DNA from: PVC group bacterium
GTDB taxonomy: Bacteria > Omnitrophota > Gorgyraeia > B26-G9
DNA: 64,000 nucleotides
Assembly (NCBI GenBank): GCA_024231215.1
Contig: JAAEQR010000202.1
Coordinates: forward strand, 302-64,301
Reading direction: 5' to 3'
Shown here: in pieces, positions 12,852 to 58,457 of the stretch
Position numbering within the stretch: position 1 is the first letter of the stretch
Layout: each line of letters opens with the position of its first letter
Program-made: the position numbers and the translations under genes
The notes under the pieces: model-generated
Database searches by the model: none
The model's input: only the letters and a program-made list of their open reading frames with translations
Told to the model about the DNA's origin: nothing

Positions 12852-14798
12852 ATGGGTGAAACACCAAGAACCGGAACCGGATTACCGGACTGGGTAACAA
12901 CTATTTTTGATAATTTCAAAATAGATCGGCAATCCAAAAACGAGGAAAACTGGCAGATGGCCATTAACAGCTATCGTGGTTTTATGGATGAATCCCAGAA
13001 CTGGAAAAAAGGCGAGGCTGGTAAGGGTGGTAGAAAACAAGACAAGTGGAGAAGTGACGCATTTCCAATGTTGGTCAAGACAAAAGTAATTGCTTTTTAT
13101 AGCATTATGACCGACATGCTGCTTCAAGGTGGCGAAATACCATTCAATTTAACACCGGACGAGGGTGAGCCACCAAAAGCAAGCGAAGAAATGAACAAGA
13201 AAATCCGTCAGCAGTTAAAAGACGGCAAGGCCGACCGTGAATTAATTAAGGCTATTATGTCGCTTGGCATGTACGGTGGCGCATACATAAGAAGTCCGGC
13301 AATACGAACACTACCACTGAAACAGTGGAAAATGGTGAATATGGCACCACAGAATGTGCAGGGATTTGGCGATGAATATGTCAGACCACAATTGCAGGTT
13401 GAGGATGTTGATTCGCCAGTCATAGAATATTGGTCTGTGTGGGATGTTTTCAGGGATATGGAAACAGACGATATCCAACGTGGGCAAGGCGTATTTTTTA
13501 GAAAAATGCTTTCTCCATACGAACTCAGGCAGTTTAAGGGCGACCCATTCTTTGATGACGAAACCCTGGAAACGGCGGTTATGGATTCCGCAAAAGAGGG
13601 GGATGCTGTTGATGAAACAGATTTGTCACCGGGCCAACGTGATATAGCGTCACGTAACAAAACAATTCGTTACCTGGAAGCGTTTATCCGTGTGCCAACC
13701 TACAAACTCATTGCATTTTTGGACGACCACTCGGTTTACAAACCACAATTTAAAGGCGTTGATTTTGATAGCAAAGTAACCGTGGATGATGGCAGAGAGA
13801 CTGAGGTTTTTTGTTGTTTAGCTAATGATAACATTGTTCGTTTGGTTCCTTGGATGGGAGAAAGACCGGTAAAATATTGTCCCTGTGAACTTGTTTTGGA
13901 TGAAGCAACCGGGCGCGGCATAGCCGATAATCTAAAAAGCGACCAGAAACTGCTCACCGGCATTATGCGAAATATCGCCGACAACCTTGCAATAGCCGGT
14001 AGTCCAATATTTGCCGGTCACAAGAACAAACTGGCCACTGGAGAGAAAACAGAGTTCTATCCCGGTAAATATATGGATTTGAAGGATGGTGTTGACAATG
14101 TTGCACAAGCAATACAGCAATTTATCATTCAGGACGTATCTGCCGGATTGGTGCGATTTCAGGAAATTGTAAAGGATATGGCCGATTCTGATGCAAATAT
14201 ACCAAAATTGCTTGAGGGTGTATCAGGTACTGGTGAAAAGACTAAATTTGAGACAGACGTATTACAAACCAATGCCGGGAAGTATATTGGCGGTGTAATT
14301 AAAAACGTTGACGAACATTTTATAGAACCCATTATCGGTGATTATTACAATTACAACATGTCTGAACCCGGCAAATTGCCGGAAATGGGGCCGATGACCG
14401 TCCACGCAAATGGATTCACCAGCTTTCAGAACAGGTTTATGAGAGTGCGAAAGTTGCAACAGATGTTGCAATTATCACTATCCAGTGATGTTATGATGAA
14501 AGAAGTAAAGATAGATAAGCATTTGGAAGAAATATATAAGGGGCTTGACATTTCGCCAGAAACATTTCTTAAAACCGAGCAGGAGAAAGCAGAGGAACAC
14601 AGGAAGTCCATACAATTTGCATTAACAAATATTGCCGAGAATCTGGGCATACCTGTTAGTGACCTTGTGAAAGCCGCTCAACCGAAAGAACCAGGCACAC
14701 AACCGGGAGCAAACATTGAGGGCGGTGGCAAACCAGAACTTGTCGGTGGCGAAGAAAGTAAACCGCAGGCACCGGAAGCACTCGGAGGCGTATTATAA
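12852..14798 (+). CDS. portal protein
   Basis: 648 aa. It follows the large terminase and precedes the scaffold and capsid genes, and its size and charge pattern are typical of portals. Confidence 0.55.
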   Translation: MGETPRTGTGLPDWVTTIFDNFKIDRQSKNEENWQMAINSYRGFMDESQNWKKGEAGKGGRKQDKWRSDAFPMLVKTKVIAFYSIMTDMLLQGGEIPFNLTPDEGEPPKASEEMNKKIRQQLKDGKADRELIKAIMSLGMYGGAYIRSPAIRTLPLKQWKMVNMAPQNVQGFGDEYVRPQLQVEDVDSPVIEYWSVWDVFRDMETDDIQRGQGVFFRKMLSPYELRQFKGDPFFDDETLETAVMDSAKEGDAVDETDLSPGQRDIASRNKTIRYLEAFIRVPTYKLIAFLDDHSVYKPQFKGVDFDSKVTVDDGRETEVFCCLANDNIVRLVPWMGERPVKYCPCELVLDEATGRGIADNLKSDQKLLTGIMRNIADNLAIAGSPIFAGHKNKLATGEKTEFYPGKYMDLKDGVDNVAQAIQQFIIQDVSAGLVRFQEIVKDMADSDANIPKLLEGVSGTGEKTKFETDVLQTNAGKYIGGVIKNVDEHFIEPIIGDYYNYNMSEPGKLPEMGPMTVHANGFTSFQNRFMRVRKLQQMLQLSLSSDVMMKEVKIDKHLEEIYKGLDISPETFLKTEQEKAEEHRKSIQFALTNIAENLGIPVSDLVKAAQPKEPGTQPGANIEGGGKPELVGGEESKPQAPEALGGVL

Positions 14799-18146: not shown

Positions 18147-19172
18147 ATGGGAGCAGCAACAACTAGGTTTGGAGATATTACTCCAAGAACAGCGGTCTTT
18201 TCCGCTGCGGGTTTTTTAAAACGGGGGCAGCCGAGACTACTCACCGAACGATTTGGCCAACCCAAACCAATCCCCAAGAAACACAGTAAGGTAATTAAGT
18301 TTAGACGGTACGAAGCACTTGCCACGGTTGAAGCACCTTTGGCTGAAGGTGTGCCACCTACAGGTCAGAAATTAACAGCGACCGATTACACAGCCACATT
18401 GGAGCAATTCGGAGACTTTACAGAAATTACCGATGTTATTATGGATACCCACGAAGACAACGTGCTTCAGGAGGGTATTAAAACAGTTAGTGAGCAGGCC
18501 GCACAAACCATTGAACTTGTTCGTCTCGCAACGCTGAAAGCCGGTACAAATGTTTATTACGCTGGAACTGGTACAACCAGGGCGACAGTTGATGCCGCAC
18601 CGGCACGTAAGGATTTCAGGAAGATAGTTCGCGGTCTTAACAGGTACAATGCAAACACGATTGAATCAATCGTGAAGGCAAGTCCAAAGATAGACACCGA
18701 GCCGGTTAACCCCTCATTTTTTGGTATTTGTCACACCGATCTTAAACCCGACTTACGTGGCGTAACCAGCTTCATTGAAGTTAAGAATTACGCCGACAGT
18801 GACAAAAGCATAGCGGGTGAGTTCGGTTCTATTGAAGATGTCCGTCTTTGTTGCTCTACGATGGTTAAACCGTGGCTTGCACAGACTACCGATTCGTCAG
18901 TGACGTACCTGAGTAACGGTAGCGAAGTAACCACAGCAGGCGCATCCGACGTTTACCCCATTCTTGTTTTTGCACAGGACGCTTACGGCATTGTTCCATT
19001 ACAGGGTAAAAACGCGGTGAAACTGATGGTTATAAACCCCGACATGCCGTCAAAGGGTGACGAGTTAGGGCAAAAGGGTTTTGTGTCGTGGAAAATGTAT
19101 CAGGCTTGTGTGATTTTAAACCAGAACTGGATGGCACGACTGGAAGCATTGGTAGTAGCAGAACCTACTTAA
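18147..19172 (+). CDS. major capsid protein (HK97-like)
   Basis: 341 aa. Its size and position after the scaffold fit a major capsid protein. It has a strong ribosome-binding site (GGGAGGT) and a strong terminator sits two genes downstream. Confidence 0.55.
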   Translation: MGAATTRFGDITPRTAVFSAAGFLKRGQPRLLTERFGQPKPIPKKHSKVIKFRRYEALATVEAPLAEGVPPTGQKLTATDYTATLEQFGDFTEITDVIMDTHEDNVLQEGIKTVSEQAAQTIELVRLATLKAGTNVYYAGTGTTRATVDAAPARKDFRKIVRGLNRYNANTIESIVKASPKIDTEPVNPSFFGICHTDLKPDLRGVTSFIEVKNYADSDKSIAGEFGSIEDVRLCCSTMVKPWLAQTTDSSVTYLSNGSEVTTAGASDVYPILVFAQDAYGIVPLQGKNAVKLMVINPDMPSKGDELGQKGFVSWKMYQACVILNQNWMARLEALVVAEPT

Positions 19173-29481: not shown

Positions 29482-30536
29482 TGTTAACAGAAGAACATAA
29501 AATAGATTTGGCCGAAACGCTCATTAAAATGAGGGGCAGTGGCGAAACACCAGAACGGATGCAATTGCTATCAGATGCTTATCGCCAAAAATATGACGTA
29601 CCGCAACAAGGTCTTGCCCAACCGGACGTTGATGTACCAGAACAACCTGCGCCAGTAGCCCCGATATCAGAAGAACCGCCAGAGACAATACCATTCTCAT
29701 ATATGGGTATACCGGCACAGTCCTTTCAGGGGGCTGGAGAATATGTAGAAGAAACAGCGGTAGACACTGGTTTGAAAACTGTTGCCAATATTAACAGAAA
29801 TGTACACAGATTATCTTCAACGGCACCTAAAATATTACAAAGTGTAATCAAAGATTCCGGGCACCCGTTAGAAAAGCCAGTTAATGATTTGGTAAATCGA
29901 TTAGATGAATATTACAATACAAATATAGAACATATTGAATCTCAAGTAAAAAACAAGGGGGCAATAGACAGTAATATAATAGCAACGCTTATTGGTGATG
30001 TGCCGTTTGGTGTGGCTGAATTTGCTGGTGGTAAGATGCCGTGGGCTGCTGCAACGGCAGTTGCCGAAGGCGAGAATCCACTGACGGCTATGGCAAAATG
30101 GTATGGATTAAGTAAAGCACTACACCTCGCTAACAAGTTCAGTGTGCCGATAAAGACGTCAGCAATGTCGGCAATATTCGGTGGACAGACCGCAATAGAG
30201 GGCGGTGATTATAAAGACATTATAGAGAGTACAGCGGTTGGTGGAATACTTGCGAATTTTGGCAGTAGCAAAAGGGGGATCGGGGCAAAAGACATTTATA
30301 ACAAATTAACAAAGAGGATATCATCAGAGAAAAAACCACCAGCGGGTCAAGAGAAAATAAAAATAGGTGAATTTGAACTCACAAAAGAACAGGCTGAAAA
30401 AGATATTACAAGCGAAGTTGAGATTGAAGGTAAAAAAATGAGGCGTGTGGACGGCAAAGCCAAAGATTTGCTGAAAGAAAACGAAGCCAAACGCAGCAAA
30501 TATGATGCATTACTCAAATGTTTAAATGCTAAATGA
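29481..30536 (+). CDS. virion/internal protein
   Basis: 351-aa ORF. Confidence 0.35.
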   Translation: MLTEEHKIDLAETLIKMRGSGETPERMQLLSDAYRQKYDVPQQGLAQPDVDVPEQPAPVAPISEEPPETIPFSYMGIPAQSFQGAGEYVEETAVDTGLKTVANINRNVHRLSSTAPKILQSVIKDSGHPLEKPVNDLVNRLDEYYNTNIEHIESQVKNKGAIDSNIIATLIGDVPFGVAEFAGGKMPWAAATAVAEGENPLTAMAKWYGLSKALHLANKFSVPIKTSAMSAIFGGQTAIEGGDYKDIIESTAVGGILANFGSSKRGIGAKDIYNKLTKRISSEKKPPAGQEKIKIGEFELTKEQAEKDITSEVEIEGKKMRRVDGKAKDLLKENEAKRSKYDALLKCLNAK

Positions 30537-38246: not shown

Positions 38247-38470
38247 TGACATTTCTATACAATGGTGCATTACCGCATCGAGGGCAAGCACTGAAGGGGT
38301 GGGCAGAACGCAGCATCCCCGGCATGCCCATAAGTTATTTTGCCCCAAGGCGTGTGGGCGGCCAGCCTGTTAGTATAGGTATTGACAGAAGATTGGTAGT
38401 AGCAAGAAAACAAGATGACGAAATGCTGGAATTAATAACAATAATTACAGGTTCAGGGATACTAAATTAG
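38246..38470 (+). CDS. hypothetical protein
   Basis: 74-aa ORF with overlapping stop/start. Confidence 0.3.
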   Translation: MTFLYNGALPHRGQALKGWAERSIPGMPISYFAPRRVGGQPVSIGIDRRLVVARKQDDEMLELITIITGSGILN

Positions 38471-41400
38471 TGGCATCTTTTGATTATTGTAAAAAATTAC
38501 TCGGGTTGTCGGATGGTTTTTTGGCAGAATTTGCGCAACGCCAGAAAGAAATAATTGCATCTGGCAAAAAGAAAGCAACTGGCTTGGTGGGTTTTGACGC
38601 AGAAACTGTTAAAACATTTACAGAAGAACTTCGTGGTGAACGCGATGCTATACTAAAACAAGTAGGGTACGAAAAACCAGTTACGGTTGAACCTGAAGCG
38701 GCACCCAAAGCTAGAAAAACTATCCCCATCAAAGACACCGGTCTGCAATTTGACAAAAAGGGATATGAACTTGCTGACAAATTTAACAAGGCGAATCCTG
38801 AATTTAATTTAGAGTACAAAGGCACCACTGGCGAATTAAGTCAATTTCACCCTAAGGGTCTGCCAGAGAATATGCGGTCTGACATAGTGACAAAGAATTT
38901 TGGCTATGTTGATCTTATTAATAAAACCAAGGATTTAAAAGAACGATTTGCTAAAGAAGTACCCAAAGAGGTTACGCCGGAGAAAAAAGCCGCGGTGGGG
39001 GTTGAAAAATTAGAAGAAATTAAAACTATTCTGGCCAAAGACAATTTAAAAATTACAGACGAAACAGCATTAAAAGAGTCACTAAAAAAGGATCAAGATA
39101 AATGGCGTGACGAAATAAGGAAAATCGATGACTATCCACACCCGCGACAAATTGATATACCAATTCTAGCAGATACCCTAAAAAAAATGAATCTCAAACC
39201 GTGGGGGGATACCAAAAAGGAATTCCCTATAATTACAAAATTCTTGGAAGAAAGTTTTTTGGGTGAAAAGAAGCCAAAAGATTTGACTATAAAGGAAATG
39301 GTCGAAGGCGAGGGCGAAGTTGGTGCTTATAAGATAGGTAAGCATGATGCCAAAATAAGTATTCTTAAAAAAATAAAATCTAAGAGAGTTGAAGTAGCTG
39401 ACATTAAAAAAAGCATATTGGATTATTCAAAACAAAATCTAACAGAATTGGATAGAAACAAAATACATCGACTCACTACCAAAGCTACAACACAACTCGG
39501 ATTAAATAGGGCATTAAAAGAAATTGACAGGGTAGAAGAAAGATACCAGAGAAAAACTGCTGTTGCTGATTTAAAGGAAACAAGGGCATCCATTGATTTT
39601 AAGCAACTACGTCCAGAATATAAATCGACAATTGAGAGTATTTTTACTGACGTTGATTTAGTGAATCGTGCCGACAAAACTACCAGAGGATTAGAAAGTC
39701 TTGCCGATCATCTTGAACGAAATCCAGATGCTAATATACCACCGCAATATATACGAAAACTGGGTAGATTAGAGAAGAAGGAAATTAAGGACTTAGCAAC
39801 AGAAGATATAACACTAATTAATAATTCAGTAAAAAGTTTAGTTCATCAAGAAAAACAAAAAAATAAATTCCTTGCTGTGGGGAAAGTACGGGATTTTAAT
39901 AAGGGTAAAGCACAGGCAATAGAAAATGTTAAAAGCGATAAGGGGCGTGTTTTTAAAAAGTATAAAAACAAGGAGCCGGGGTTATTGCGCACAACCGGAA
40001 TAGACTTTCTTAACATGGAGTATATGGCTAAACATTTGGACAAAGCAGACAGAGATATAAATAAAGCCATTACTTATGATGTTTTAAACGAAGGTGTTAG
40101 AGATACTATAAAAATGAGGCGTGATGCAAAATCAGAACTACGTGGAAAAACGAAAGACGTTGATATGGATAACTGGAGTGAATCTTTTCATGTCCAGCGC
40201 AAAGAGGGCAAAAACAGGAAAAAAGTAGACTATAAGAAAATTAAACTTTCTTCGGGAAAAACCATAGAACTTAACTCTGCGGAAAGAATACAGATGTATT
40301 TGCTTGGTCAAAGAGAACAGGCATTGGGGCATTTGCTTGCAGATACCGGGGGAATACGCATTGAGCAGGATTATAAAAAACCGAGATATAAACTTACCGG
40401 TGAGGATATAGATGCCATAACAAAACTAACGCCGGGGGAAAAAAGGGTGGCGGATGCGCTGCACGATTATTATAATATCACACAAAAAAACAAAATTAAT
40501 GAAACCAGTGTGAAAATTAATAACCGAGAAGATGCAACAGAAAAAAATTATGTTCGTATAAGAATATTTGGTGAAGACATCCAACGCGACTATCTAACAA
40601 AAGGCATGTTGCCCGGAGATATGAATAATTTCACCAAATTTTCAGTTGAGGGCATGGGTTGGTTAAAACCTACAACACCAGGAGCAAAGCAACCAATTTT
40701 ATTAGAAGATGCTTTCAATGCTCATATGCGAAGCATGATAGAAGCATCTGCATATCACGGTTTAGCTGCACCACTTAGAGATGCAAAGGCTCTTATAAAA
40801 GACCCCGATTATAGAAAAACCATACGGAATAATTATGGTGAACATTATTTAAAATACATGGATAGATATTTAGTTGAAATGGAGGGCGAGTATAGAAACG
40901 TTGATAATGTTGAAAAAATAACACAGGAGGCAATAAACAGACTAGACAGTGCTTTCTTGGGTGCAAATCCGTGGATTATGGTTAAACAGACAATTTCATA
41001 TTTTGGTGCTTCTCAGGAAATAAAGTGGAAATATCTATTAAGGGCATCCAAAACAAAGGGTGTATCGGATGAAGTTATTAAAAAATATAGTCCCGAAGGT
41101 GGGGAGCGATTAGAGGGGAAAATAACTAGGGAGTTAGGGGAGGTTGCTAATGTTGGTAAGGTACGGCAATTTTGGACAGACAAAACGACCTTACCACAAA
41201 AAACAATGGCCGGTATTAGAAAATTTGATAGTGCAACTATTAAAAGAATTTGGAAGGCAGTGGAATATGAAACTAACGAACTTCATCCCAAACTTAAGGG
41301 TGATGAACGAATGAATCACATTGCACGTAGGGCAGAGGAGGTTATACGTTTAACGCAGCCTACATTTGAAACAAAAGATCGCTCTGCTATAGGCCGTAGT

Positions 41401-42045
41401 CCAGCCACATTTACAAGACTTATTACAAAATATTCATCGCAAAGAAACAAAAACGTGATGATGGAGCATAGAGCGATTAACAAATATTTACAGAGTGAGA
41501 GAACATCACATGATAAAAAAGCCCTTGCAAGTGCTGTTGTAACGCTTGGTGTGTTAAAGGCACTTACTTTGTATAGTGTGGATGAGTTGCGGAACCTTAC
41601 CTATGGCAGAAAAGAACCAGACAATAAGAACAGACATAGGGCACTCAAATGGATGGAATATACCCTTGGTGATATTTATGTCGTTGGAAATATATTTAGT
41701 AACATAGTGAGTGGTATTGAGTATGGTAGTTTCGCTAAAGGACAATCTGACATTATATCCTCTACGGCTGGGGACTTCACAGATGCTATGGTCGCCGCTT
41801 GGAATGCAGCAGGGGAATGGGTTGACCAAAGCACTTTTGAATCGGGGAAAAACGAGGACGAAAAGAAATGGATCAATTCTATTATAAAAGCCGCTGATAA
41901 TTCTGCCGCCGTCTATCTTCACGTAAGGCGTGGAATACCATATAGAACAATTAAAAAGATGGTTGGAATACCATTTGTCGATAGGAGTAAAGAAAAAAAA
42001 TCAACTGGCAAAACCACCACAAGACCCGTTAGGAAAGAAAATTAA
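38470..42045 (+). CDS. large K/E-rich internal virion protein (ejection/tape-measure-like)
   Basis: 1191 aa with a strongly charged lysine/glutamate-rich N-terminal 700 aa and predicted coiled coils. Confidence 0.4.
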   Translation: MASFDYCKKLLGLSDGFLAEFAQRQKEIIASGKKKATGLVGFDAETVKTFTEELRGERDAILKQVGYEKPVTVEPEAAPKARKTIPIKDTGLQFDKKGYELADKFNKANPEFNLEYKGTTGELSQFHPKGLPENMRSDIVTKNFGYVDLINKTKDLKERFAKEVPKEVTPEKKAAVGVEKLEEIKTILAKDNLKITDETALKESLKKDQDKWRDEIRKIDDYPHPRQIDIPILADTLKKMNLKPWGDTKKEFPIITKFLEESFLGEKKPKDLTIKEMVEGEGEVGAYKIGKHDAKISILKKIKSKRVEVADIKKSILDYSKQNLTELDRNKIHRLTTKATTQLGLNRALKEIDRVEERYQRKTAVADLKETRASIDFKQLRPEYKSTIESIFTDVDLVNRADKTTRGLESLADHLERNPDANIPPQYIRKLGRLEKKEIKDLATEDITLINNSVKSLVHQEKQKNKFLAVGKVRDFNKGKAQAIENVKSDKGRVFKKYKNKEPGLLRTTGIDFLNMEYMAKHLDKADRDINKAITYDVLNEGVRDTIKMRRDAKSELRGKTKDVDMDNWSESFHVQRKEGKNRKKVDYKKIKLSSGKTIELNSAERIQMYLLGQREQALGHLLADTGGIRIEQDYKKPRYKLTGEDIDAITKLTPGEKRVADALHDYYNITQKNKINETSVKINNREDATEKNYVRIRIFGEDIQRDYLTKGMLPGDMNNFTKFSVEGMGWLKPTTPGAKQPILLEDAFNAHMRSMIEASAYHGLAAPLRDAKALIKDPDYRKTIRNNYGEHYLKYMDRYLVEMEGEYRNVDNVEKITQEAINRLDSAFLGANPWIMVKQTISYFGASQEIKWKYLLRASKTKGVSDEVIKKYSPEGGERLEGKITRELGEVANVGKVRQFWTDKTTLPQKTMAGIRKFDSATIKRIWKAVEYETNELHPKLKGDERMNHIARRAEEVIRLTQPTFETKDRSAIGRSPATFTRLITKYSSQRNKNVMMEHRAINKYLQSERTSHDKKALASAVVTLGVLKALTLYSVDELRNLTYGRKEPDNKNRHRALKWMEYTLGDIYVVGNIFSNIVSGIEYGSFAKGQSDIISSTAGDFTDAMVAAWNAAGEWVDQSTFESGKNEDEKKWINSIIKAADNSAAVYLHVRRGIPYRTIKKMVGIPFVDRSKEKKSTGKTTTRPVRKEN

Positions 42046-43071: not shown

Positions 43072-44555
43072 TGAAAAAACTAATTATTATATTCATAATT
43101 TTATTTTGGGCAAGTGGAGCGTGGGGGGCTAATTGGTATGTTGATATGGACGGAGCCAATGGTGATGGGTCGCAGGGTACTCCGTGGAATGAGCTTGAGA
43201 ATGTAACAGGAACGTCACCTGGGGATAGTATTTATGCTAGAGGTACCTTAGTAGATACATCATCAGAACAAAAGATTCGCAGGTGTACTGGGACTTATTG
43301 GTATGGCAATGACCCTACTTGGGCTGGAAGCAACCAAGCAACGGTAATTATGCCAGGAGACAATTATGGAATAGTTTTTGAATCTGGCGAAAATTCTAAT
43401 ATTGTAATTGATGGATTTTATGTGTCTAATCCTATTGCGGATGGCAAGTCTGCATTATATGTTGGATCATATAATAGTGAAATACGAAATTGTATAATAA
43501 AAGATGCTGGTGCAAGTGCATTTTCTGTACGAGCATACAAGAGTGATATTACCAAAACTTATATCCACAATAATGATATAAATGGTGTTGGGTTAACTGA
43601 TTCCGAAAGTGGTTATGGAATTAATCTTACACCCAATCCTACAACATACAATTATCTAGGCGGCTTTACGGTCACCTACAATACATGGAGAAATTTAAGT
43701 GAATCTCCAATAGGAACTATGGGGTCATATGTTTTAGTTGCAAATAATTATGTTTGGGGAGTGGGAGAGCTTAGTCCAAGCGGAAATGAAAATTGTTGGC
43801 AACATAATGCCAGATCCGGCGTGAAAGACACCAACTTAATATTTATAAATAATGTTTGTGCAAATATTACGGGTTCCGGGGCTACCCCAAGCATTGGTGC
43901 AGGTGAATGGATAAGTAATATATTTGTACAAAATAATATTTTCGCTAATGCTACAGGCATTAATACTGTTGCTAATTTTGCTACGGGTCATCTAGGGTAC
44001 AGATCAGATCAGTTTGTTTTTAAAAACAACATAGTTTACAATTTTGGAACGGCTGATTGTGTTAATGAAACCAATATTTTTGGTGGAGCTATTAGAATCT
44101 ATTCTTTTAAACCATCTGGAATAAACATGGTTACGGGAACGTACATTAAAGATAATATTTTTTTTAATGATAAGTATCCAGATGATAACATTATTTGCGT
44201 TACTGACCCATACGCAAATTATGATGTTGCTGGGATGGAGACATGGGTTAATGACACCAAGGGGGGTACGGCAAGCGGGAATAAGCAAATTAAACCGGCC
44301 ATTGGTTCAGTATTCACTGATGAAGTAACCAATTTTATGCTTGCTACAGAAAACGCAGCCGGGGCTAAGTCATCGAACATCACCGGTGGAAATACTTATG
44401 CCGCAACGGTACAGATTGGTACCGATGGTGATGGTGATCCATGTGTATTATTTCCTGACGATTATAACGGTGATACCAGACCAACAGGAGCAGATCCGTG
44501 GAACATGGGGCCATTCAGCACATACAACGAGGGGCGGCGAAGAAGAACACAATAA
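43071..44555 (+). CDS. secreted right-handed beta-helix protein (polysaccharide lyase/depolymerase-like)
   Basis: 494 aa with the signal peptide MKKLIIIFIILFWASGAWGANW. It has many NNxI/V rungs (NNDINGVGLT, NNVCANITG, QNNIFANATG, KNNIVYNFG) typical of pectin-lyase-fold proteins. Confidence 0.45.
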   Translation: MKKLIIIFIILFWASGAWGANWYVDMDGANGDGSQGTPWNELENVTGTSPGDSIYARGTLVDTSSEQKIRRCTGTYWYGNDPTWAGSNQATVIMPGDNYGIVFESGENSNIVIDGFYVSNPIADGKSALYVGSYNSEIRNCIIKDAGASAFSVRAYKSDITKTYIHNNDINGVGLTDSESGYGINLTPNPTTYNYLGGFTVTYNTWRNLSESPIGTMGSYVLVANNYVWGVGELSPSGNENCWQHNARSGVKDTNLIFINNVCANITGSGATPSIGAGEWISNIFVQNNIFANATGINTVANFATGHLGYRSDQFVFKNNIVYNFGTADCVNETNIFGGAIRIYSFKPSGINMVTGTYIKDNIFFNDKYPDDNIICVTDPYANYDVAGMETWVNDTKGGTASGNKQIKPAIGSVFTDEVTNFMLATENAAGAKSSNITGGNTYAATVQIGTDGDGDPCVLFPDDYNGDTRPTGADPWNMGPFSTYNEGRRRRTQ

Positions 44556-44616
44556 TTTATTATTTTCTAATAATGTCCAATATATATATTAAGAATGTTT
44601 TTGAGGACATATTAAA

Positions 44617-44796
44617 ATGAAACCAGAAGAGAAAATGGACATAGAAGACGGGGTTATTAATACCATTATAGCACCGGTTGTGGTAGAAATTAAAAAAATT
44701 AACAAATCCATTGAAATTATTAATGAACGAATGGAGAAGTTAGCAAACCTAACCCACGACCTTGGAGTAAATAATGTTAATAAAAACGGGCGTTGA
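44617..44796 (+). CDS. small hypothetical protein (not in track)
   Basis: 59-aa ORF MKPEEKMDIEDGVINTIIAPVVVEIKK... with a GAGGA ribosome-binding site. Coordinates are approximate. Confidence 0.25.
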   Translation: MKPEEKMDIEDGVINTIIAPVVVEIKKINKSIEIINERMEKLANLTHDLGVNNVNKNGR

Positions 44797-45115
44797 TATA
44801 TCGAGATTACAGCGCACAATTCGCCGTGCACTCAACACCGTTAATAGCACTTTCAATAAATACAACCAAGAAGCCGTAATTACCAGTACATATGAGGGTT
44901 CGCATTCTGCCGGGTCGCTGCATTATGCGAATTTAGCCTTTGACGTAAGACTGCCAACCAGAACAGACAAAAATATGCTTCAAGTCGATGAGGATAATAT
45001 CAGAATAGATTTAATCAAAAAGCTGAAAGCTTATAGCAAATATTACCAACTTATTTTTTTAGATCCAAACGGATTAAGGAAAAACCATTGGCACATTGAA
45101 TATGACAGGGGCTAG
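44774..45115 (+). CDS. endolysin, peptidase M15 family (L-alanyl-D-glutamate peptidase-like)
   Basis: 113 aa. It carries the zinc-ligand motifs SHSAGSLHYANLAFD (H..G.A.D) and HWHIEYD (H.H), characteristic of small M15 phage endolysins. Confidence 0.55.
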   Translation: MLIKTGVDISRLQRTIRRALNTVNSTFNKYNQEAVITSTYEGSHSAGSLHYANLAFDVRLPTRTDKNMLQVDEDNIRIDLIKKLKAYSKYYQLIFLDPNGLRKNHWHIEYDRG

Positions 45116-45124
45116 GAGGTCAAA

Positions 45125-45421
45125 ATGCCAGAAAAATCAAACAATAACGGGCAAACATTGAGGTGGGCGTTAGGTATTTTGGTTTCATTGCTCATGCTTC
45201 TCATTGGCATTAATTACAGAAGCGATGCCAGAACAGCAGAAAGCGTCCATTTAAAAAGCGACAGAACCGAGTGTGTGCAGAAAAAAACAGAGCTGAAGCA
45301 GGAAATGCGAGAAGTTGAGCAACGACTGGTAAAACGATTCGACAAAATGGAAATCCGGCAGGAAAAACGAAATGAAGCCAACTCTAGAAAGCTCGACAGA
45401 ATACTTGAGAAAATCCGCTAA
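45125..45421 (+). CDS. i-spanin-like protein (N-terminal TM + coiled coil)
   Basis: 98 aa with one N-terminal transmembrane segment (WALGILVSLLMLLIGI). The rest is charged and coiled-coil-like. It lies next to the endolysin. Confidence 0.4.
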   Translation: MPEKSNNNGQTLRWALGILVSLLMLLIGINYRSDARTAESVHLKSDRTECVQKKTELKQEMREVEQRLVKRFDKMEIRQEKRNEANSRKLDRILEKIR

Positions 45422-45490
45422 TATTAAAGTTCTTGCCAAACCTGCCGATATATATAATGGCAGCTATTAATATGCAAAGGGAGCAAAACA

Positions 45491-45664
45491 ATGCGAATTT
45501 TAGAGGGTAAAAAGACCTACGTTGTTGCCATTTTGATTGGGTTGGCGAATGCCGCACATTTTATGGGGTATATAACCCCGGAACAACTCACATTAATATT
45601 GGGACTCTTGGGTGCTGGCGGATTGGCTAGTTTGCGGGACGGCGTTAAAAAATCAGGTAAATAA
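45491..45664 (+). CDS. holin-like small membrane protein (not in track)
   Basis: 57 aa, MRILEGKKTYVVAILIGLANAAHFMGYITPEQLTLILGLLGAGGLASLRDGVKKSGK, with two hydrophobic helices and a charged C-terminus. A GGGAG ribosome-binding site lies upstream. Confidence 0.35.
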   Translation: MRILEGKKTYVVAILIGLANAAHFMGYITPEQLTLILGLLGAGGLASLRDGVKKSGK

Positions 45665-45864
45665 TGGACGGCATACCTGTTAAATTAAATAATGGCGAAA
45701 TCTGGTACGCATACCCTGCCGAATACATAAACAGCCTAGTTAGTTCAAACGAATTATGGGTGTGGGTGGTTGGTGCCAGCATTCTTTGGTTGATAGTTGG
45801 TCTGTTATTTTCGCTTAGACGCATAAAAAGACCTGTTAAAATGATTAAAAACAAAAGGAGATAA
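45664..45864 (+). CDS. holin/membrane protein
   Basis: 66 aa with a central transmembrane segment (LWVWVVGASILWLIVGLLFSL) and a basic C-terminus. Confidence 0.35.
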   Translation: MDGIPVKLNNGEIWYAYPAEYINSLVSSNELWVWVVGASILWLIVGLLFSLRRIKRPVKMIKNKRR

Positions 45865-45865
45865 C

Positions 45866-46315
45866 ATGGATAAGGGAGCAAAATTATTAATAGTTATATT
45901 GTGCCTGTATTTTTGTGGTTGTGCAAGTTCAGTAATTGGTAGATTGGGGCCGAATACCGAAGTCACGGTGGCCACATCAGACATAGTCATTACAGGCAAC
46001 GGCAAAGATGCGCTGAAACCCACGATAACGTTCAATCCAGCGGCAGATACGGTGGCTGGCAGCATGAGCATTGACGTTGAGGGTGCTTACAATGTCCAGT
46101 CCAGCGGCAATATGTGGCAGTCTAAAACAGTGGGTCGCAGCAAAAGCCTAAATGGTGTATTCGTTGGCAATTACACTATACGAAATGGCGAACCAGATCA
46201 CACTATTCATTTTAATTATACCGAGGGTGGTGGCTTGTTTGATGATTTCTTTGGCGGCTGGCAGCTTGACCAAAATCAGGTGCTAGTGCCAGAAACGGAC
46301 AATTGTACGAAATGA
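45866..46315 (+). CDS. lipoprotein (possible o-spanin or lysis-associated lipoprotein)
   Basis: 149 aa with a lipobox-like signal (LCLYFCGCASS). Confidence 0.4.
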   Translation: MDKGAKLLIVILCLYFCGCASSVIGRLGPNTEVTVATSDIVITGNGKDALKPTITFNPAADTVAGSMSIDVEGAYNVQSSGNMWQSKTVGRSKSLNGVFVGNYTIRNGEPDHTIHFNYTEGGGLFDDFFGGWQLDQNQVLVPETDNCTK

Positions 46316-46599
46316 GAGCAGAAAAACTTAACGAATATAAGCCCGATTATGCTATCCCACCGGGTTATACGATTAGTGAATGCATGAAATATGAGGAAAT
46401 AACAAAGCGTGAATTGGCAAATCAATTAAACATCACAAGACAAACGCTAGATGAAGTATTTATGGGCGAAGCACCTATCACACCGGAAATGTCTAAAAAA
46501 CTCAGCACTATTTTTGGTGCGTCTGAAGCCTTTTGGAACAATTTACAAAGAAATTACGAAGAAACTAAGGAGCGTTTAGAGCGTGAAAATACCAGATAA
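46303..46599 (+). CDS. HigA-family XRE-type HTH protein (antitoxin-like)
   Basis: 98 aa. The segment ISECMKYEEITKRELANQLNITRQTLDEVFMGEAPITPEMSKKLSTIFGASEAFWNNLQRNY matches the HigA/VapI HTH_3 antitoxin pattern, including the ...FW.NLQ..Y tail. Confidence 0.5.
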   Translation: MYEMRAEKLNEYKPDYAIPPGYTISECMKYEEITKRELANQLNITRQTLDEVFMGEAPITPEMSKKLSTIFGASEAFWNNLQRNYEETKERLERENTR

Positions 46600-47101
46600 A
46601 GTAAAAATACAAATAATCTGCGCTATATTCAGGACAAGCTCGCTGTATCTTGGGCGCATGATGGACAGACTTATGCCGATAGCAATACAGAACAACGGTA
46701 ATCGTGAACTAAAACGACTTCAGGGCATAGCTAATGATGCCCAAAAACTTGACAACGCACTTATGAAATATCAGTATATTAATGACCCACTAAATGGTAG
46801 ACTCAACATTATGTTCCCGACATGGTTTACGTGCTGGACTCGCCAAGGAGACTGTGATGACTCTATGAACTTACTATCCAACATTTTACGTGGGCAGATG
46901 TGGGTGATAGTGAAAAACATTACAAATACGGACGCAGGCGGTCATTGTGTGTTTTTGGATAACAAACGCAACCTGTGGAGCGACTTCAGACTTGAAGAAA
47001 CAAACGTAACCGACATACGCAAAGCATCCAAGAAATACATAAGCAATTATAAATATTTAATCCACTTGGGGCGTGACCTTAAAATTAAGCGGATAATTTA
47101 G
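46583..47101 (+). CDS. transglutaminase-like/papain-fold cysteine peptidase domain protein
   Basis: 172 aa. It has the candidate catalytic triad order Cys (QGDCDDSMNLL), His (GGHCVFLD) and Asp (NLWSDF), as in transglutaminase-like cysteine peptidases. Confidence 0.35.
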   Translation: MKIPDKVKIQIICAIFRTSSLYLGRMMDRLMPIAIQNNGNRELKRLQGIANDAQKLDNALMKYQYINDPLNGRLNIMFPTWFTCWTRQGDCDDSMNLLSNILRGQMWVIVKNITNTDAGGHCVFLDNKRNLWSDFRLEETNVTDIRKASKKYISNYKYLIHLGRDLKIKRII

Positions 47102-47103
47102 CG

Positions 47104-47502
47104 ATGAAACTACCCCAAATAGGCGATACGATAACAACCCTCAGGGCTATTGAACTGTGTAAACACTTTAAGTTTTACGAATTATCTGCATACATAAATA
47201 GAGATATAGAGAAGTTCAAACCTTGGGTTTTTGACGGGGCATCCATGTTGCCGGATAAATGGTTTGTTAAGACATCCAAAATACCCAACTTAATAGAAAT
47301 TGCACTCAAGCATGATTTGGAATATGCTTATGGCGAGCATGGCGATAAAGTCCGAAGAAAAGAAGTTGACCTCAAGTTTAGAAAAAATTTACGCAAAGAT
47401 GGGGTTGGCCCGGTACTAGCAGAAATCATGTATCGTGCTGTCCGTTTTGGGGGTTCCGAGATATTGAAAAGAAGTTTTTCATGGGGATATGCGAGAAAGT
47501 GA
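47104..47502 (+). CDS. DUF1353 family protein
   Basis: 132 aa with WVFDGASMLPDKWF, ALKHDLEYAYGE and LAEIMYRAVRFGG, matching the DUF1353 conserved blocks. This is from memory. Confidence 0.45.
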   Translation: MKLPQIGDTITTLRAIELCKHFKFYELSAYINRDIEKFKPWVFDGASMLPDKWFVKTSKIPNLIEIALKHDLEYAYGEHGDKVRRKEVDLKFRKNLRKDGVGPVLAEIMYRAVRFGGSEILKRSFSWGYARK

Positions 47503-47510
47503 AGATATTA

Positions 47511-47524
47511 CTCATTATAATGAG
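47511..47524. promoter_or_regulatory. 14-bp palindrome CTCATTATAATGAG (copy 2)
   Basis: Exact match. Its internal ATG starts the lipoprotein ORF. Confidence 0.45.
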
Positions 47525-47777
47525 CGTTCTGCTCGGTGGTTGCACTTATACTGTGCGAGAATTTGCTCACGGCGATGATAATGAAACATTTAGACTTAAA
47601 TCCCGCTGGACGAGGGTTTCATATGAAGGCAAAAACCGCACCATAAATATGCATGCACCAGCCAATCCCGGCGGTATCGTCGATTCTTTTTGGAAACTAT
47701 TAGACAGGGCTGCTTACCCAATTGGACAAATGGCTGGGAAACCTGAATACAACGAGGAAACAAGATTGGGGGAATAG
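47519..47777 (+). CDS. small lipoprotein
   Basis: The track ORF is 47481..47777. The ATG inside the CTCATTATAATGAG palindrome gives MSVLLGGCTYTV, a lipobox (LLGGC). Confidence 0.35.
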
Positions 47778-47805
47778 ACTTATCTGCCATGTGTAGAAAA
47801 AGATC

Positions 47806-47852
47806 CTATGCCGTCTTTTAATTAAGGCGGCATTTGCTATTTCATGCCGCAG
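47806..47852. terminator. bidirectional terminator region at the convergence of late (+) and early (-) transcription
   Basis: Three mutually complementary segments (ATGCCG / CGGCAT / ATGCCG) form alternative hairpins flanked by T-runs on both strands. The region overlaps the stop of the minus-strand gene ending at 47842. Confidence 0.4.
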
Positions 47853-48336
47853 CCCCCCTTGCCTGTTTTTGCATTTTAGCAGTAGCGTAATCGCTAAGTG
47901 CCCTATTTTTGCGCCACATTACATACCACGACCACGATATCGTTTCGCCATTATCGGATATGCCGGATTCAACATGTTTCTTCACCAAAAACGGCACATC
48001 ACATTCAATAAAATGTTTCCGCCATTTGGTTAAATCGTCAAGTGGTTTATAGAAAAAGGTATAGATGGTGCGACGCTGGTGTTTTTCATCTTCTTCCCAA
48101 CTCGTGTCTTCGTAATAAGGCAAAATAGGGAACCGGTCTTCTGGTTTTAGCTTCTCAATTTCAGCATGTCTGTACGATAATTCAGGCATTATTTTGCCTT
48201 TACTCCAGTCTTTGCAGTAGACTTCTTTATAAGCATTCTTGCAGTGCTGATTACATAATGGCGGGATTGTGGATTGCTTCACCGCGCTCGACGTTTTTGT
48301 AATTATATTGTGGCATACTACGCATACGGTTATCAT
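47842..48336 (-). CDS. hypothetical protein
   Basis: 164-aa ORF with an N-terminal CxxC...CNQHC cysteine cluster. Confidence 0.35.
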   Translation of the reverse strand: MITVCVVCHNIITKTSSAVKQSTIPPLCNQHCKNAYKEVYCKDWSKGKIMPELSYRHAEIEKLKPEDRFPILPYYEDTSWEEDEKHQRRTIYTFFYKPLDDLTKWRKHFIECDVPFLVKKHVESGISDNGETISWSWYVMWRKNRALSDYATAKMQKQARGAAA

Positions 48337-48348
48337 AATTGTCCCCTG

Positions 48349-48885
48349 TTAGGCTAATTCAATTTGAAGGTCAGGCCAACGCCCTATTAATTCCCTTGCC
48401 TCAGACAAAATATATCTTCTTGCATCTTTTTTTTGGGGTTTAAGAAGACCCCCAAACGCCCGATAATGATTAAGTCTGGTGTTATATAGCACGTACCCAG
48501 CCACATCGTCGGGCACTGCTTTTGCCATACCAACAGAACTACCCGGTCTATTTACCACATATTGGGCTTTGTAATAATTCCCCCACACAGGGCCAGATGG
48601 TATTTCCCCAACAATTGGTTCTTTAAGTGGATCATGCTTCTTTATTGCATCTACTAATAGCTGAAGATCGTCGCGGGCGTATTTTAAATTACTGAGTGCT
48701 GACAGACGACCCCGTCTGCCATGACACATTTCATAAATAACGCAGTCAGAACAATTTTGTGGGCCTTTTGATCCACAAAAATAACACGGGGGGTCATCCT
48801 CAATTTCTTCAATTAATGCTTGTACCAACTCAAGCCTTTCATCATCCCATTTTGTTAACGTTTCTTCATACGTCACTTTACTCAT
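48349..48885 (-). CDS. Cys-rich hypothetical protein
   Basis: 178 aa with a CYFCG....C.DC....C cluster. Confidence 0.35.
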   Translation of the reverse strand: MSKVTYEETLTKWDDERLELVQALIEEIEDDPPCYFCGSKGPQNCSDCVIYEMCHGRRGRLSALSNLKYARDDLQLLVDAIKKHDPLKEPIVGEIPSGPVWGNYYKAQYVVNRPGSSVGMAKAVPDDVAGYVLYNTRLNHYRAFGGLLKPQKKDARRYILSEARELIGRWPDLQIELA

Positions 48886-55047: not shown

Positions 55048-55061
55048 CTCATTATAATGAG
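55048..55061. promoter_or_regulatory. 14-bp palindrome CTCATTATAATGAG (copy 5)
   Basis: Exact match, 7 nt 5' of the minus-strand start at 55041. Confidence 0.5.
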
Positions 55062-55693
55062 CATTTTACTTTATAAACAATTGGTTTTTGAAACTCACCC
55101 AATATGTAATTTTTGTTATCACCTTTTGGATAAGGTTTGGTTTTATAATTTAATTTTAAAATAACCTGTTTTTTAAATTTTCTGTTTTTTATTGCAAAAA
55201 AAACATACCTGTGTTTGGCTGTCCTTATTTTTCTAAACTCACCCTGATCTTTATTTTTAGTATGTCTTGAATGTTTATTGCCTAATGTGTATTTAACAGT
55301 TCTTTGTTTTGTACAACCAGTATATAAAAAATTACACGCTTGATAAATATACCCATGATGATCCATATTCGTATCACTATAGGCAACAATTATTACATTT
55401 TCAAAACTAAGTCGCCTTAAACAAGCACCAACAAATGCACTTAATGGTTCATTTAAATCATCTACACGGCAAAGCCTATTTAATTCAAAAACCATAAAGG
55501 AGAATTCTTTACCACATATACCATTGCATAAAGTGTTAGAGGCTGGTTTACCAAAAGTGCAAACAGCTTGTAATTTGTTATCAATAAACCAACCCCACGC
55601 CCAAGAAATAGACGGCATACGTCCCGAATAGTGCTTTGGTAGTAAAAAATCCCGACATTCTTTATATGTTAAGTGTTTTATTTTGCCCCTCAT
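55052..55693 (-). CDS. possible Mom-like (acyltransferase-fold) DNA-modification protein
   Basis: 213 aa. The N-terminal KHYSGRMP...FGKP and C-terminal AYSD...HHGYIYQACNFLYTGCT blocks resemble phage Mu Mom as recalled from memory (..HYS...P..FGRP / ..YAD...GH.GTIYQAAGW.Y.G). No alignment was run. Confidence 0.3.
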   Translation of the reverse strand: MRGKIKHLTYKECRDFLLPKHYSGRMPSISWAWGWFIDNKLQAVCTFGKPASNTLCNGICGKEFSFMVFELNRLCRVDDLNEPLSAFVGACLRRLSFENVIIVAYSDTNMDHHGYIYQACNFLYTGCTKQRTVKYTLGNKHSRHTKNKDQGEFRKIRTAKHRYVFFAIKNRKFKKQVILKLNYKTKPYPKGDNKNYILGEFQKPIVYKVKCSL

Positions 55694-56422: not shown

Positions 56423-56968
56423 TTATAATTGTATTACTGCGGCAGAATATACTTTGTCTCGCAGTAATTTTGTTGGTATTGCTACATTGTGTGTGTTGTA
56501 ACCCTTGTTTTTTGCTGGCGGTATTTTAAAGTTGATTTTCCACTCATTTTTAAATTTTAACCAAACCCTTCTTAGTAATTGCCACGGAAATAAATAACAA
56601 ACTTGTGTTGGCATAAAAGCATAAGCTAAATAGTCTATTAGCAGGTCTTTTTCCATCCAGCCGGGTGCACCAGTCGTGTCATTTGATAAGTATTCAAGAA
56701 GAATGTCATTATATGTGCCCCGTCTTTTTTTCTCATCAATATATAATGTTTTACCGCTTTTTAAGTAGATTAGTCTGTCAATGCCCAAACGCTGTCCTTG
56801 GTTATTGCCTTTACATTGAATATTATAAAGCATGTCTGGAAAAGCTTTGGTATAAATTGCTTGCCAAAAATTCTCTTCACTGGCATTTTCGCTAAATTTT
56901 AAATCCTCGTGAAAATTATTTAATTTCGTTGCCATAACTTGTCCAACCCTCTCTTTCTTCTCTTGCAA
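56423..56968 (-). CDS. hypothetical protein, possible PD-(D/E)XK-like nuclease
   Basis: 181 aa. The GIDRLIYLKSGKTLYIDEKK block could be a D...(D/E)xK core. This is weak. Confidence 0.25.
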   Translation of the reverse strand: MQEKKERVGQVMATKLNNFHEDLKFSENASEENFWQAIYTKAFPDMLYNIQCKGNNQGQRLGIDRLIYLKSGKTLYIDEKKRRGTYNDILLEYLSNDTTGAPGWMEKDLLIDYLAYAFMPTQVCYLFPWQLLRRVWLKFKNEWKINFKIPPAKNKGYNTHNVAIPTKLLRDKVYSAAVIQL

Positions 56969-58016
56969 AAACTTCTGCTTTGGGTAAATCCGGATACATT
57001 TTCTCTATTATTTCATAAAACACCTGCGGTTTTTTACTGTGTTCTAATCGTGGTGCAATAACGACAGAAGCTATTCTGTCCTCTGGTTCTGGCATGGGTG
57101 GTTCGCCTATTTTTGCTATTAAAAGTAATTCGTGTTTTTGCCTTACGTAATAGCCCATACCAATTTTGTCTTTCACCCACACCATGCAGGTTCTATAATT
57201 AAAATTCCATTGGTTTATAACTTCAATGCTTTCGGCTAGTTTGGGGCTGGTTGTCCACAAAAATAAAATACAATTATTTGCTGTAATTTTGTGGATCGGG
57301 TAGTTTTTTATGTCTTCTAACTGCATTGTTGGATATTGTTTTTCAATTGCTCGGCTATGCGAAACAACGTGTTCATATTGCCACGGTGGGTCACAATATA
57401 AAACAGCATGTTTTTTATTGTCCAAGCAGTCTGTAATAATGCTTTCGTGCCGCATTATTTTTTTTTCTTGCCCTGTAATATTTTTATATATTTCATTAAT
57501 AGAACTATTTCCTTCTGTAAGGGCTTCTTTTTGCTCAGCTGTTGCCTGCTGATTTATTTTTTTTACTTTGGTTATTGTATCGTGTGAAACACCGGCCTCT
57601 TTAGCAAGTTCTTGGCGTGTTTCTATAGCTTTGGCAGAAGTCTGCGGAACCTTTTCAACCCCCCCCGCCTGTTGTTTTGTTTTGGCTTTTGCTTGATAAT
57701 ATTCTTCAAGTTGTAATGCTAAAACACTGCGTTGATATGCGTTTATATTTCTCCTTCCAAACTGATTTTTAACAATCCATATTTTTGCTGCTGCTTCAGA
57801 TTCAATAATATATTTTATTTTTTTTATGTCAAAATCAATGTCGTGTTTATGGCATATTGCATACCGATTATGCCCATCAATTATGGTATCACGCCACGTT
57901 ATAATGGGGTTTAGACATCCATTTGTTAAAATATTTTGTTCTAGTTGTTTATATTCTTGTTCGGTGAGTGGTGGTATTATTGCTTTAAATTCGGGGTTCA
58001 CGGCAATTTCTTTCAT
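56916..58016 (-). CDS. ParB-like nuclease domain fused to N6-adenine DNA methyltransferase (MT-A70/DPPW type)
   Basis: 366 aa. The N-terminal ParB/Sulfiredoxin-like region reads IDGHNRY. The C-terminal methyltransferase has a DPPW catalytic motif (LYCDPPWQYE). Confidence 0.6.
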   Translation of the reverse strand: MKEIAVNPEFKAIIPPLTEQEYKQLEQNILTNGCLNPIITWRDTIIDGHNRYAICHKHDIDFDIKKIKYIIESEAAAKIWIVKNQFGRRNINAYQRSVLALQLEEYYQAKAKTKQQAGGVEKVPQTSAKAIETRQELAKEAGVSHDTITKVKKINQQATAEQKEALTEGNSSINEIYKNITGQEKKIMRHESIITDCLDNKKHAVLYCDPPWQYEHVVSHSRAIEKQYPTMQLEDIKNYPIHKITANNCILFLWTTSPKLAESIEVINQWNFNYRTCMVWVKDKIGMGYYVRQKHELLLIAKIGEPPMPEPEDRIASVVIAPRLEHSKKPQVFYEIIEKMYPDLPKAEVFAREEREGWTSYGNEIK

Positions 58017-58381: not shown

Positions 58382-58457
58382 TGGCGAATCGGCGGGGACT
58401 CGAACCCCGAACCGCTGGTTTTGGAGACCAGTGCTCTAGCCGTTGAGCTACCGACTC
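58382..58457 (-). tRNA. tRNA-Trp (anticodon CCA), CCA 3' end encoded
   Basis: Manual fold: acceptor GAGTCGG/CCGATTC (one G-U), D-arm GCTC-AACGGCTA-GAGC, anticodon arm CTGGT-CTCCAAA-ACCAG, variable CGGTT, T-arm CGGGG-TTCGAGT-CCCCG, discriminator G, then CCA. Confidence 0.75.

Follow-up and report, generated by a model that had tools for sequence, protein, structure and literature searches.

A predicted cysteine peptidase of an undescribed family and a predicted phospholipase A2 beside the lysis genes of a phage genome

Lysis of Gram-negative bacteria by phages is usually told as three steps, carried out by holin, endolysin and spanin. Extra envelope-directed hydrolases or lipoproteins can be encoded beside these genes, such as the LysB esterase of mycobacteriophages, an accessory lysis enzyme, and the Bor lipoprotein of lambda, an end-of-operon moron. 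Here we describe four consecutive open reading frames (ORF1 to ORF4) found in a 64,000-nucleotide stretch of DNA from a contig assigned to a PVC group bacterium (JAAEQR010000202.1, positions 302 to 64,301, assembly GCA_024231215.1), hereafter called the window. The window is a phage genome, in which the four genes follow a set of lysis genes. Like LysB and Bor, they include predicted envelope-directed hydrolases and a lipoprotein; however, their protein families are unrelated to those two, and the cluster is known from genes alone. What is new here is a rare, undescribed peptidase family of a known superfamily, represented by ORF2, whose genes recur beside phage lysis genes, an association that had gone unremarked. 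A search of the literature on transglutaminase-like proteins combined with endolysin and holin found no paper. The four genes and a regulatory motif within the last of them are as follows.

46303-46599, plus strand: ORF1, HigA-family XRE helix-turn-helix (HTH) protein
46583-47101, plus strand: ORF2, predicted transglutaminase-like (LapG/vasohibin-like) cysteine peptidase of 172 amino acids (aa), with a GDCDD motif and residues C91, H121 and S133
47104-47502, plus strand: ORF3, DUF1353 protein and predicted TtaP-class phospholipase A2 (PLA2), with residues H70, D71, Y74 and D89
47481-47777, plus strand: ORF4, orphan putative lipoprotein of 98 aa, overlapping ORF3 by 22 nt, with a coding score of +0.111 in its own frame only
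47511-47524, strandless: a copy of the palindrome CTCATTATAATGAG, codon-aligned inside the ORF4 signal peptide

Two described proteins stand closest to the enzymes of this cluster. LapG, of the BTLCP family (MEROPS C93), is a periplasmic, calcium-dependent peptidase in which acidic residues flanking the nucleophile bind calcium (PMC4359373, PMC4866520). TtaP, the founding member of DUF1353, lacks a signal peptide and has PLA2 activity established by biochemistry, with H70, D71 and D85 as its catalytic residues; it adjoins TtsA, a muramidase of phage type, and DUF1353 also occurs in fusions with lysozyme and protease domains (PMC11525133). ORF2 is further compared below with the vasohibins and CPR-C4, and with PeiW and PeiP, the pseudomurein endoisopeptidases of archaeal viruses.

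Family, predicted fold and active site of ORF2

ORF2 starts with a GTG codon located 10 nt after the sequence AAGGAG and overlaps ORF1 by 17 nt, and its relatives align from residue 1. Taken alone, the protein matched no Pfam, PHROG, NCBIfam or PADLOC family and no PDB sequence. No match was obtained by tblastn against GenBank phages, nothing significant by Foldseek against the BFVD viral structures, and only ORF2 itself by a word-indexed protein search. When 1.84 billion cluster representatives were searched exhaustively with HMMER, only 19 proteins emerged, hence the family is rare. One 1571-aa "hit" (P0013) was rejected as a repetitive artefact, and pattern-based scans for further loci (alignment A2; viral, metagenome and genome contigs) gave pattern matches and no true relatives.

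Residues D90, C91, H121 and S133 are invariant in the alignment of 18 family members, following the pattern G-D-C-D-D ... G-H ... W-S-N-F. Inteins are characteristically placed in essential active-site motifs, and one relative (P0015) carries a LAGLIDADG intein (CVPKDTEIY ... TLMHN, then C) that starts with Cys, ends with HN and has the catalytic cysteine as its +1 residue, between GD and CDD of the motif. This insertion site is separate evidence that the functional core of the protein lies in this motif.

As a single sequence, ORF2 was modelled by AlphaFold with a predicted local distance difference test (pLDDT) score of 35. With the family alignment, the pLDDT rose to 93.3 and the predicted template-modelling (pTM) score was 0.90; in this model C91 starts a helix (91-101) and H121 lies in a strand (120-126). 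LapG was the best Foldseek match of the model, over its full length and with weak significance (E = 0.074), and it was also the sole significant PDB match of the family sequence profile (E = 0.0079), in an alignment that takes in the stretch before the cysteine together with the GDC[DE]D motif. When the profile was confined to the C-terminal half, its only PDB matches were spurious ones to RCC1 repeats. PF01841 (Transglut_core) does not match ORF2 itself and is touched only by distant relatives: one member of alignment A1 (E = 1.1e-6), P0020 in a precomputed record, and P0021 with 22.7 bits, below the cut-off of 23. From the family profile and the structural model together, ORF2 is assigned to the transglutaminase-like cysteine peptidase superfamily (clan CA), and to no described family within it. 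An earlier note on this DNA had proposed a transglutaminase-like peptidase with a Cys-His-Asp order, to be checked by structure prediction and Foldseek. The fold and the Cys-His order are borne out, whereas the Asp is not conserved: S133 is invariant, and position 134 is N or D in most members.

The G-D-C-[DE]-D motif of the family aligns with that of LapG, and some relatives are secreted, as LapG is periplasmic. However, none of the 18 family members matched PF06035 (BTLCP) at E <= 1, identity with LapG is about 10%, and there is no conserved catalytic Asp, the invariant Ser133 being found instead. ORF2 also differs from LapG in being phage-borne, lysis-associated and without a signal peptide, and no LapD- or LapA-like partner was seen. 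This serine brings to mind the vasohibins, which have a Cys-His-Ser triad (PMC4866520), although vasohibins and CPR-C4 have no detectable sequence similarity to ORF2 and a different biology (tubulin detyrosination in the case of vasohibins). PeiW and PeiP match ORF2 structurally, more distantly than LapG does; they act on archaeal pseudomurein with a Cys-His-Asp triad, whereas ORF2 has no wall-binding domain. Signal peptides (Sec or lipoprotein) were identified in four ORF2 relatives, which suggests that the family acts outside the cytoplasm, while ORF2 itself has none. Among endolysins, too, some forms are secreted and others are signal-less.

Gene neighbourhoods of the ORF2 family and of the cluster

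The evidence for the proposed lysis role of the four-gene cluster is positional. It comes from the window, from ten loci of ORF2 homologues whose DNA was read, and from the gene list of one more contig. The same gene order was found in L003, L004 and L005: a beta-helix tail gene, two small genes, a Phage_lysozyme gene, an Rz-like spanin gene (phrog_7686, 2e-6), one gene, the ORF2 homologue (24% identical to ORF2), a gene for a 50-aa holin-like membrane protein, and convergent genes. This is the same genome position as that of ORF2 in the window. Moreover, the holin-like protein of the window is 36% identical, over its full length and without gaps, to the 50-aa protein of L003, whose gene comes immediately after that of the ORF2 homologue.

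Other homologues also lie near genes for peptidoglycan-active enzymes. A homologue with a signal peptide (P0005) is encoded three genes after a Peptidase_M15_4-like gene (faint match), with a GDSL lipase and a terminase downstream. Secreted homologues are encoded directly upstream of an SLT transglycosylase (L011) and 2.3 kb from an Amidase_3 gene that is itself next to a holin gene (phrog_6918, 1.8e-6; L007). At a bacterial locus (L006), the homologue abuts a Peptidase_S11 DD-carboxypeptidase. The neighbours on two short contigs (L001 and L002) match PHROGs of unassigned function. Overall, seven loci offered 4.6 kb of context or more; six of these encode a peptidoglycan-active enzyme within 2.5 kb, and two of the six also have a spanin-like or holin gene. 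At about 0.1 per locus, six of seven would be expected by chance with a probability of about 1e-5, a rough estimate that is confounded by the gathering of both morons and lysis genes at late-operon ends. No HTH gene was found beside an ORF2 homologue in any of the ten loci or in the gene-list contig, and no DUF1353 gene at any homologue locus; BLASTP of ORF1, ORF3 and ORF4 against the six-frame ORFs of the ten loci also found no relative.

In the window, the genes upstream of the four ORFs and the terminator downstream of them are the following.

44774-45115, plus strand: LAS/Hedgehog-type (M15-like) zinc peptidase of 113 aa, candidate endolysin that opens the lysis block
45125-45421, plus strand: Rz-like i-spanin candidate, with an N-terminal transmembrane segment and a coiled coil read from the sequence and weak PHROG matches to Rz-like families 312 and 739 (E = 0.01-0.016)
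45491-45664, plus strand: holin-like protein of 57 aa with two hydrophobic segments (phrog_6116 holin, weak, E = 0.029)
45664-45864, plus strand: 66-aa protein with a single transmembrane segment and no family match, its start overlapping the holin-like stop by 1 nt
45866-46315, plus strand: 149-aa putative lipoprotein (…LYFCGC…), with no family match and a positive coding score
47808-47833, plus strand: intrinsic terminator between the convergent late (plus strand) and early (minus strand) gene sets

The candidate endolysin alone has no Pfam match. A profile of five sequences, made of this protein and four Microviridae homologues, matched the N-domain of Sonic hedgehog (E = 1.7e-5) over the zinc-binding motif H..SLHY.G.A.D, and residues H44, H50, D57, H105 and H107 are invariant in the family, including the C-terminal H.H motif. 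This is the LAS/Hedgehog/DD-peptidase fold, to which the M15-type peptidoglycan peptidases belong. Its relatives in GenBank phages were found only in nine Microviridae genomes, all as unannotated "hypothetical proteins", and a peptidase of this type is probably the lysis enzyme of those nine microviruses too. The 149-aa lipoprotein is a possible o-spanin or other envelope protein. These genes fit the lysis cassette that the earlier note had placed upstream of the cluster, and the convergent terminator it had mentioned is equally present, with a 10-bp stem, five GC pairs and a T-rich tail (-17.9 kcal/mol, z = -3.84; none of 200 shuffles was as stable).

That note had described the four genes as an island lying after the lysis cassette and before the terminator. 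The genes are indeed coding-like and so placed. With a codon-usage score trained on 19 long window genes, each of the four, including the orphan ORF4, had a score above zero in its own frame, and all five other frames scored below zero. However, a separable island was not recovered. From the holin-like gene (45491) to the end of ORF4 (47777), seven genes follow one another with each overlapping or lying at most 2 nt from the next. The G+C content of the cluster (0.37-0.45) is that of the flanks, which rules out a compositionally foreign island. Nor was a sigma-70 promoter of its own found: no promoter-like site lies on the plus strand from 45700 to 47800, and promoter-like sites in the region were no commoner than in shuffled sequences. 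Because of these overlaps and abutments, the uniform G+C content and the lack of an internal promoter-like site, we consider the four genes as the distal end of the late lysis block.

ORF3 follows ORF2 directly. The protein matched PF07087 (DUF1353) with 23.5 bits, marginally above the gathering cut-off of 22.5, in agreement with the annotation proposed earlier for this gene. Its relatives align from residue 1, and H70, D71, Y74 and D89 are invariant among the 14 sequences of the family. Solved PLA2 structures were matched by the family profile (8k1w with E = 0.0049; further matches were 4aup and 7ygk), and the alignment superimposes the HD..Y and D motifs. As in TtaP, the class of which is now shown to be a PLA2 (PMC11525133), ORF3 has H70, D71 and a downstream Asp (D89, compared with D85 of TtaP), about 130 aa, and no signal peptide or disulfide cysteines. 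The likeness is by family profile and not by direct alignment, and ORF3 is phage-borne in a late operon whereas TtaP lies in a toxin islet. ORF3 is thus a predicted TtaP-class PLA2. No match to ORF3 was found by tblastn in GenBank phages. DUF1353 genes are known two genes from the amidase endolysin in phage FNU1 and among tail genes in phage KIRK. Next to the closest ORF3 homologue, on a bacterial chromosome (L013), a 62-aa ORF (6326-6514) overlaps the start of the homologue by 4 nt and could encode a partner or an inhibitor.

ORF1 exceeded the curated equivalog cut-off of TIGR02607 (antidote_HigA; 55.3 compared with 47.7 bits), which upholds its earlier reading as a HigA-type HTH protein, and it also matched HTH_3 (27.6 bits) and phrog_1381 (5.6e-15). 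Its true start is likely an ATG at 46312 that shares the sequence ATGA with the stop codon of the preceding gene. Homologues are present in 106 GenBank phage records, among them records of Vibrio, Stx2a-converting and Microcystis phages, and weak PADLOC matches were obtained to HTH components such as RmrA and HTH_VI. With about 95 aa and a single XRE HTH domain, ORF1 resembles HigA; it differs in sitting within a phage late operon and in having no adjacent HigB/RelE-type partner. Its neighbours are the 149-aa lipoprotein and ORF2, with no other ORF of at least 50 aa, and neither matches a toxin family; the absence of HigB had also been remarked in the earlier note. We take ORF1 to be an orphan DNA-binding protein of the HigA family that has no functional pairing with ORF2 and that, most simply, would be a late-expressed regulator.

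A direct reading of the ORF4 sequence finds a lipoprotein signal peptide at the N-terminus (MGICEKVKILLIIMSVLLGG, followed by C) with a lipobox ending in LLGG before the Cys, and ORF4 is thus a predicted envelope lipoprotein. No homologue was found by tblastn in GenBank phages, and no significant match in Pfam, PHROG or NCBIfam. The palindrome CTCATTATAATGAG inside it is perfect over its 14 bp and contains TATAAT. Seven exact copies are present in the window (3778, 47511, 51790, 54149, 55048, 58464 and 61811), a count reached by none of 100 shuffles, together with a one-mismatch copy at 29520. The flanks tend to aacg...caaa. Copies on the minus strand lie 6-9 nt upstream of ATG starts (51781, ~54139 and 55041) and 6 nt upstream of the gene for tRNA-Trp. 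Given this spacing, the palindrome would behave like a promoter or operator: it looks like an early-gene promoter (containing the -10) or an operator, and as a promoter it would possibly give leaderless or near-leaderless mRNAs. An RNA hairpin was ruled out, since the palindrome is absent from the minimum-free-energy fold. Earlier, the start of ORF4 had been thought to be embedded in the palindrome. The lipoprotein and the palindrome are both real, whereas the embedded start is not: the start codon is at 47481 and the palindrome lies 30 nt inside the gene, over codons 11-15 (47511-47524). The palindrome holds only an internal ATG (M14), and if M14 were the start, the signal peptide would be too short. 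The flank of this copy resembles those of the leftward-pointing copies, hence it would be antisense to ORF3 and ORF2. Possibly, ORF1 acts on the palindrome.

Possible roles of the four genes

Our best explanation, which we favor only tentatively, is that the cluster consists of two accessory envelope-degrading lysis genes (ORF2 and ORF3) and an orphan HTH regulator at the end of the late lysis block. Being signal-less, ORF2 would build up inside the cell and, in the manner of canonical endolysins, gain access to the envelope on holin firing. Its target there would be a peptide or isopeptide bond, either in a peptidoglycan-linked or outer-membrane-anchored protein or in a stem peptide, and by cutting it ORF2 would aid the LAS-type endolysin and the spanin-like proteins in dismantling the envelope. 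ORF3 would be released by the holin and would hydrolyze membrane phospholipids at the same stage. Release through the holin is proposed for both proteins because neither has a signal peptide. Low cytoplasmic calcium might keep both inactive until release, since both enzyme classes are typically calcium-dependent. Secreted PLA2s usually require calcium, and for ORF2 the idea of gating is based on the calcium dependence of LapG (PMC4359373, PMC4866520). In this scheme we infer where the enzymes act and on which substrate, their gating by calcium and any part they have in lysis, whereas the families and folds, the invariant residues, the close packing of the genes and the repeated occurrence of ORF2 relatives near lysis genes are what the analysis shows. 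A more specific proposal, which we regard as doubtful, is that the ORF2 family represents a new class of lysis effector: a calcium-gated, transglutaminase-like cysteine (iso)peptidase, its triad probably being Cys-His-Ser, that is released by the holin, severs protein tethers of the Gram-negative envelope and, in this phage, works with a PLA2. Such tethers may join the outer membrane to peptidoglycan or anchor adhesins. On this reading, the pair would form a fourth enzymatic step of lysis beside holin, endolysin and spanin, and the phage DUF1353 phospholipases would receive a first biological role.

Several points weigh against a lysis role. Morons, too, gather at the ends of late operons, and proximity to lysis genes is therefore no proof of a role in lysis. 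The tie to lysis is positional and not experimental for both the ORF2 family and the phage DUF1353 proteins, and the neighbourhood evidence comes from only seven independent loci. In addition, one lipoprotein-form homologue (L010) is encoded beside an RHS protein with no lysis gene near. The spanin and holin assignments in the window are weak matches (E = 0.01-0.03). The ORF2 family has no invariant Asp as a third catalytic residue, since position 134 is D in ORF2 and N in most relatives, and its nearest structural neighbours cut proteins, not peptidoglycan. As for ORF3, its closest relatives (52-55% identity) are lone chromosomal genes among housekeeping genes, including one in a methanotrophic symbiont of Bathymodiolus, and deletion of TtaP reportedly gave no envelope phenotype (PMC11525133).

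The alternative that survives best, although somewhat unlikely in our view, is moron cargo that remodels the host surface and takes no part in lysis, with a LapG-like protease shedding an adhesin or phage receptor. With the lipoprotein also acting, the outcome could be superinfection exclusion, progeny that are not trapped on debris, or biofilm dispersal. The cluster lies just before a terminator, the classical moron site, and bor and lom of lambda are examples of cargo at the end of a late operon. LapG itself cuts a surface adhesin off the cell (PMC4359373, PMC3032545), and the LapG-related HvyA is reported to control capsule and phage susceptibility (PMC4241560). The chromosomal singletons closest to ORF3 suggest horizontal exchange, some ORF2 relatives are bacterial and secreted, and ORF4 is an orphan lipoprotein bearing a regulatory motif. 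However, the cluster overlaps the late lysis genes and has neither a promoter-like site or terminator of its own nor a foreign composition. No integrase or lysogeny gene was found among the 20 large window ORFs included in a non-exhaustive scan. Moreover, ORF2 has no signal peptide, so a periplasmic substrate would be out of its reach in a lysogen, and the L003 homologue does not follow the cassette but lies within it, with the spanin gene before it and the holin gene after it.

An unlikely role, which concerns ORF1 alone, is that of an orphan antitoxin against a host HigB-type toxin, as a counter-defence, or that of a late repressor acting on the palindrome at early units. ORF1 is a HigA-family member without a toxin partner, and the 106 phage records attest that HigA-like genes are common in phages. 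The seven palindromes, mostly 6-9 nt upstream of early starts, are also the kind of site bound by a dimeric HTH protein, but nothing ties ORF1 to the palindrome specifically. Finally, the idea of the earlier note that ORF1 and ORF2 form a toxin-antitoxin, abortive-infection or anti-defence module, in which the HTH protein would neutralize or regulate a toxic peptidase, is very improbable: ORF1 does pass the HigA cut-off with no HigB partner and has its weak PADLOC matches, and the 17-nt overlap suggests translational coupling, but all genes from the holin-like gene to ORF4 are equally tightly coupled and the overlap is thus not special, ORF2 has no PADLOC match and four secreted relatives, and the module fails because the HTH-peptidase pairing is unique to the window, the homologues being associated with lysis genes rather than with virion or HTH genes.

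Were the accessory lysis role true, proteolytic and lipolytic steps would be added to envelope breakdown. It would also explain why DUF1353 is common in prophages, and the two small, possibly calcium-activated envelope-active enzymes would be of practical interest. If the lysis role is false, the analysis still disposes of a toxin-antitoxin annotation ("HigA plus peptidase") that looks plausible and lacks support.

Other features of the window

The DNA from 44500 to 48500 has no related sequence among 50,697 GenBank phage records. Structural genes, like those for the tail, are on the plus strand, whereas the early genes on the minus strand, from about 47.8 kb on, include those for a ParB-methyltransferase, an exonuclease, a Mom-family protein and tRNA-Trp. 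The features located are the following.

4410-5474, plus strand: GDSL-like lipase/acylhydrolase (23.9 bits, cut-off 23.6), upstream of the terminase gene
9460-11088, plus strand: large terminase
12852-14798, plus strand: portal/adaptor protein
18147-19172, plus strand: major head protein
38470-42045, plus strand: 1191-aa protein of the tail region, matching phrog_28077, a function-unassigned family (5.7e-137)
55052-55693, minus strand: Mom-family DNA-modification protein (5.1e-27)
56916-58016, minus strand: fusion of a ParB-like protein and a DNA methyltransferase
58382-58457, minus strand: tRNA-Trp (CCA) of the early region, with the 14-bp palindrome directly before the gene

The Mom-family protein and the ParB/methyltransferase fusion suggest DNA modification against restriction. 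A GDSL lipase gene is found between the ORF2 homologue and the terminase gene in the P0005 contig, and the window also has its GDSL-like gene upstream of the terminase gene.

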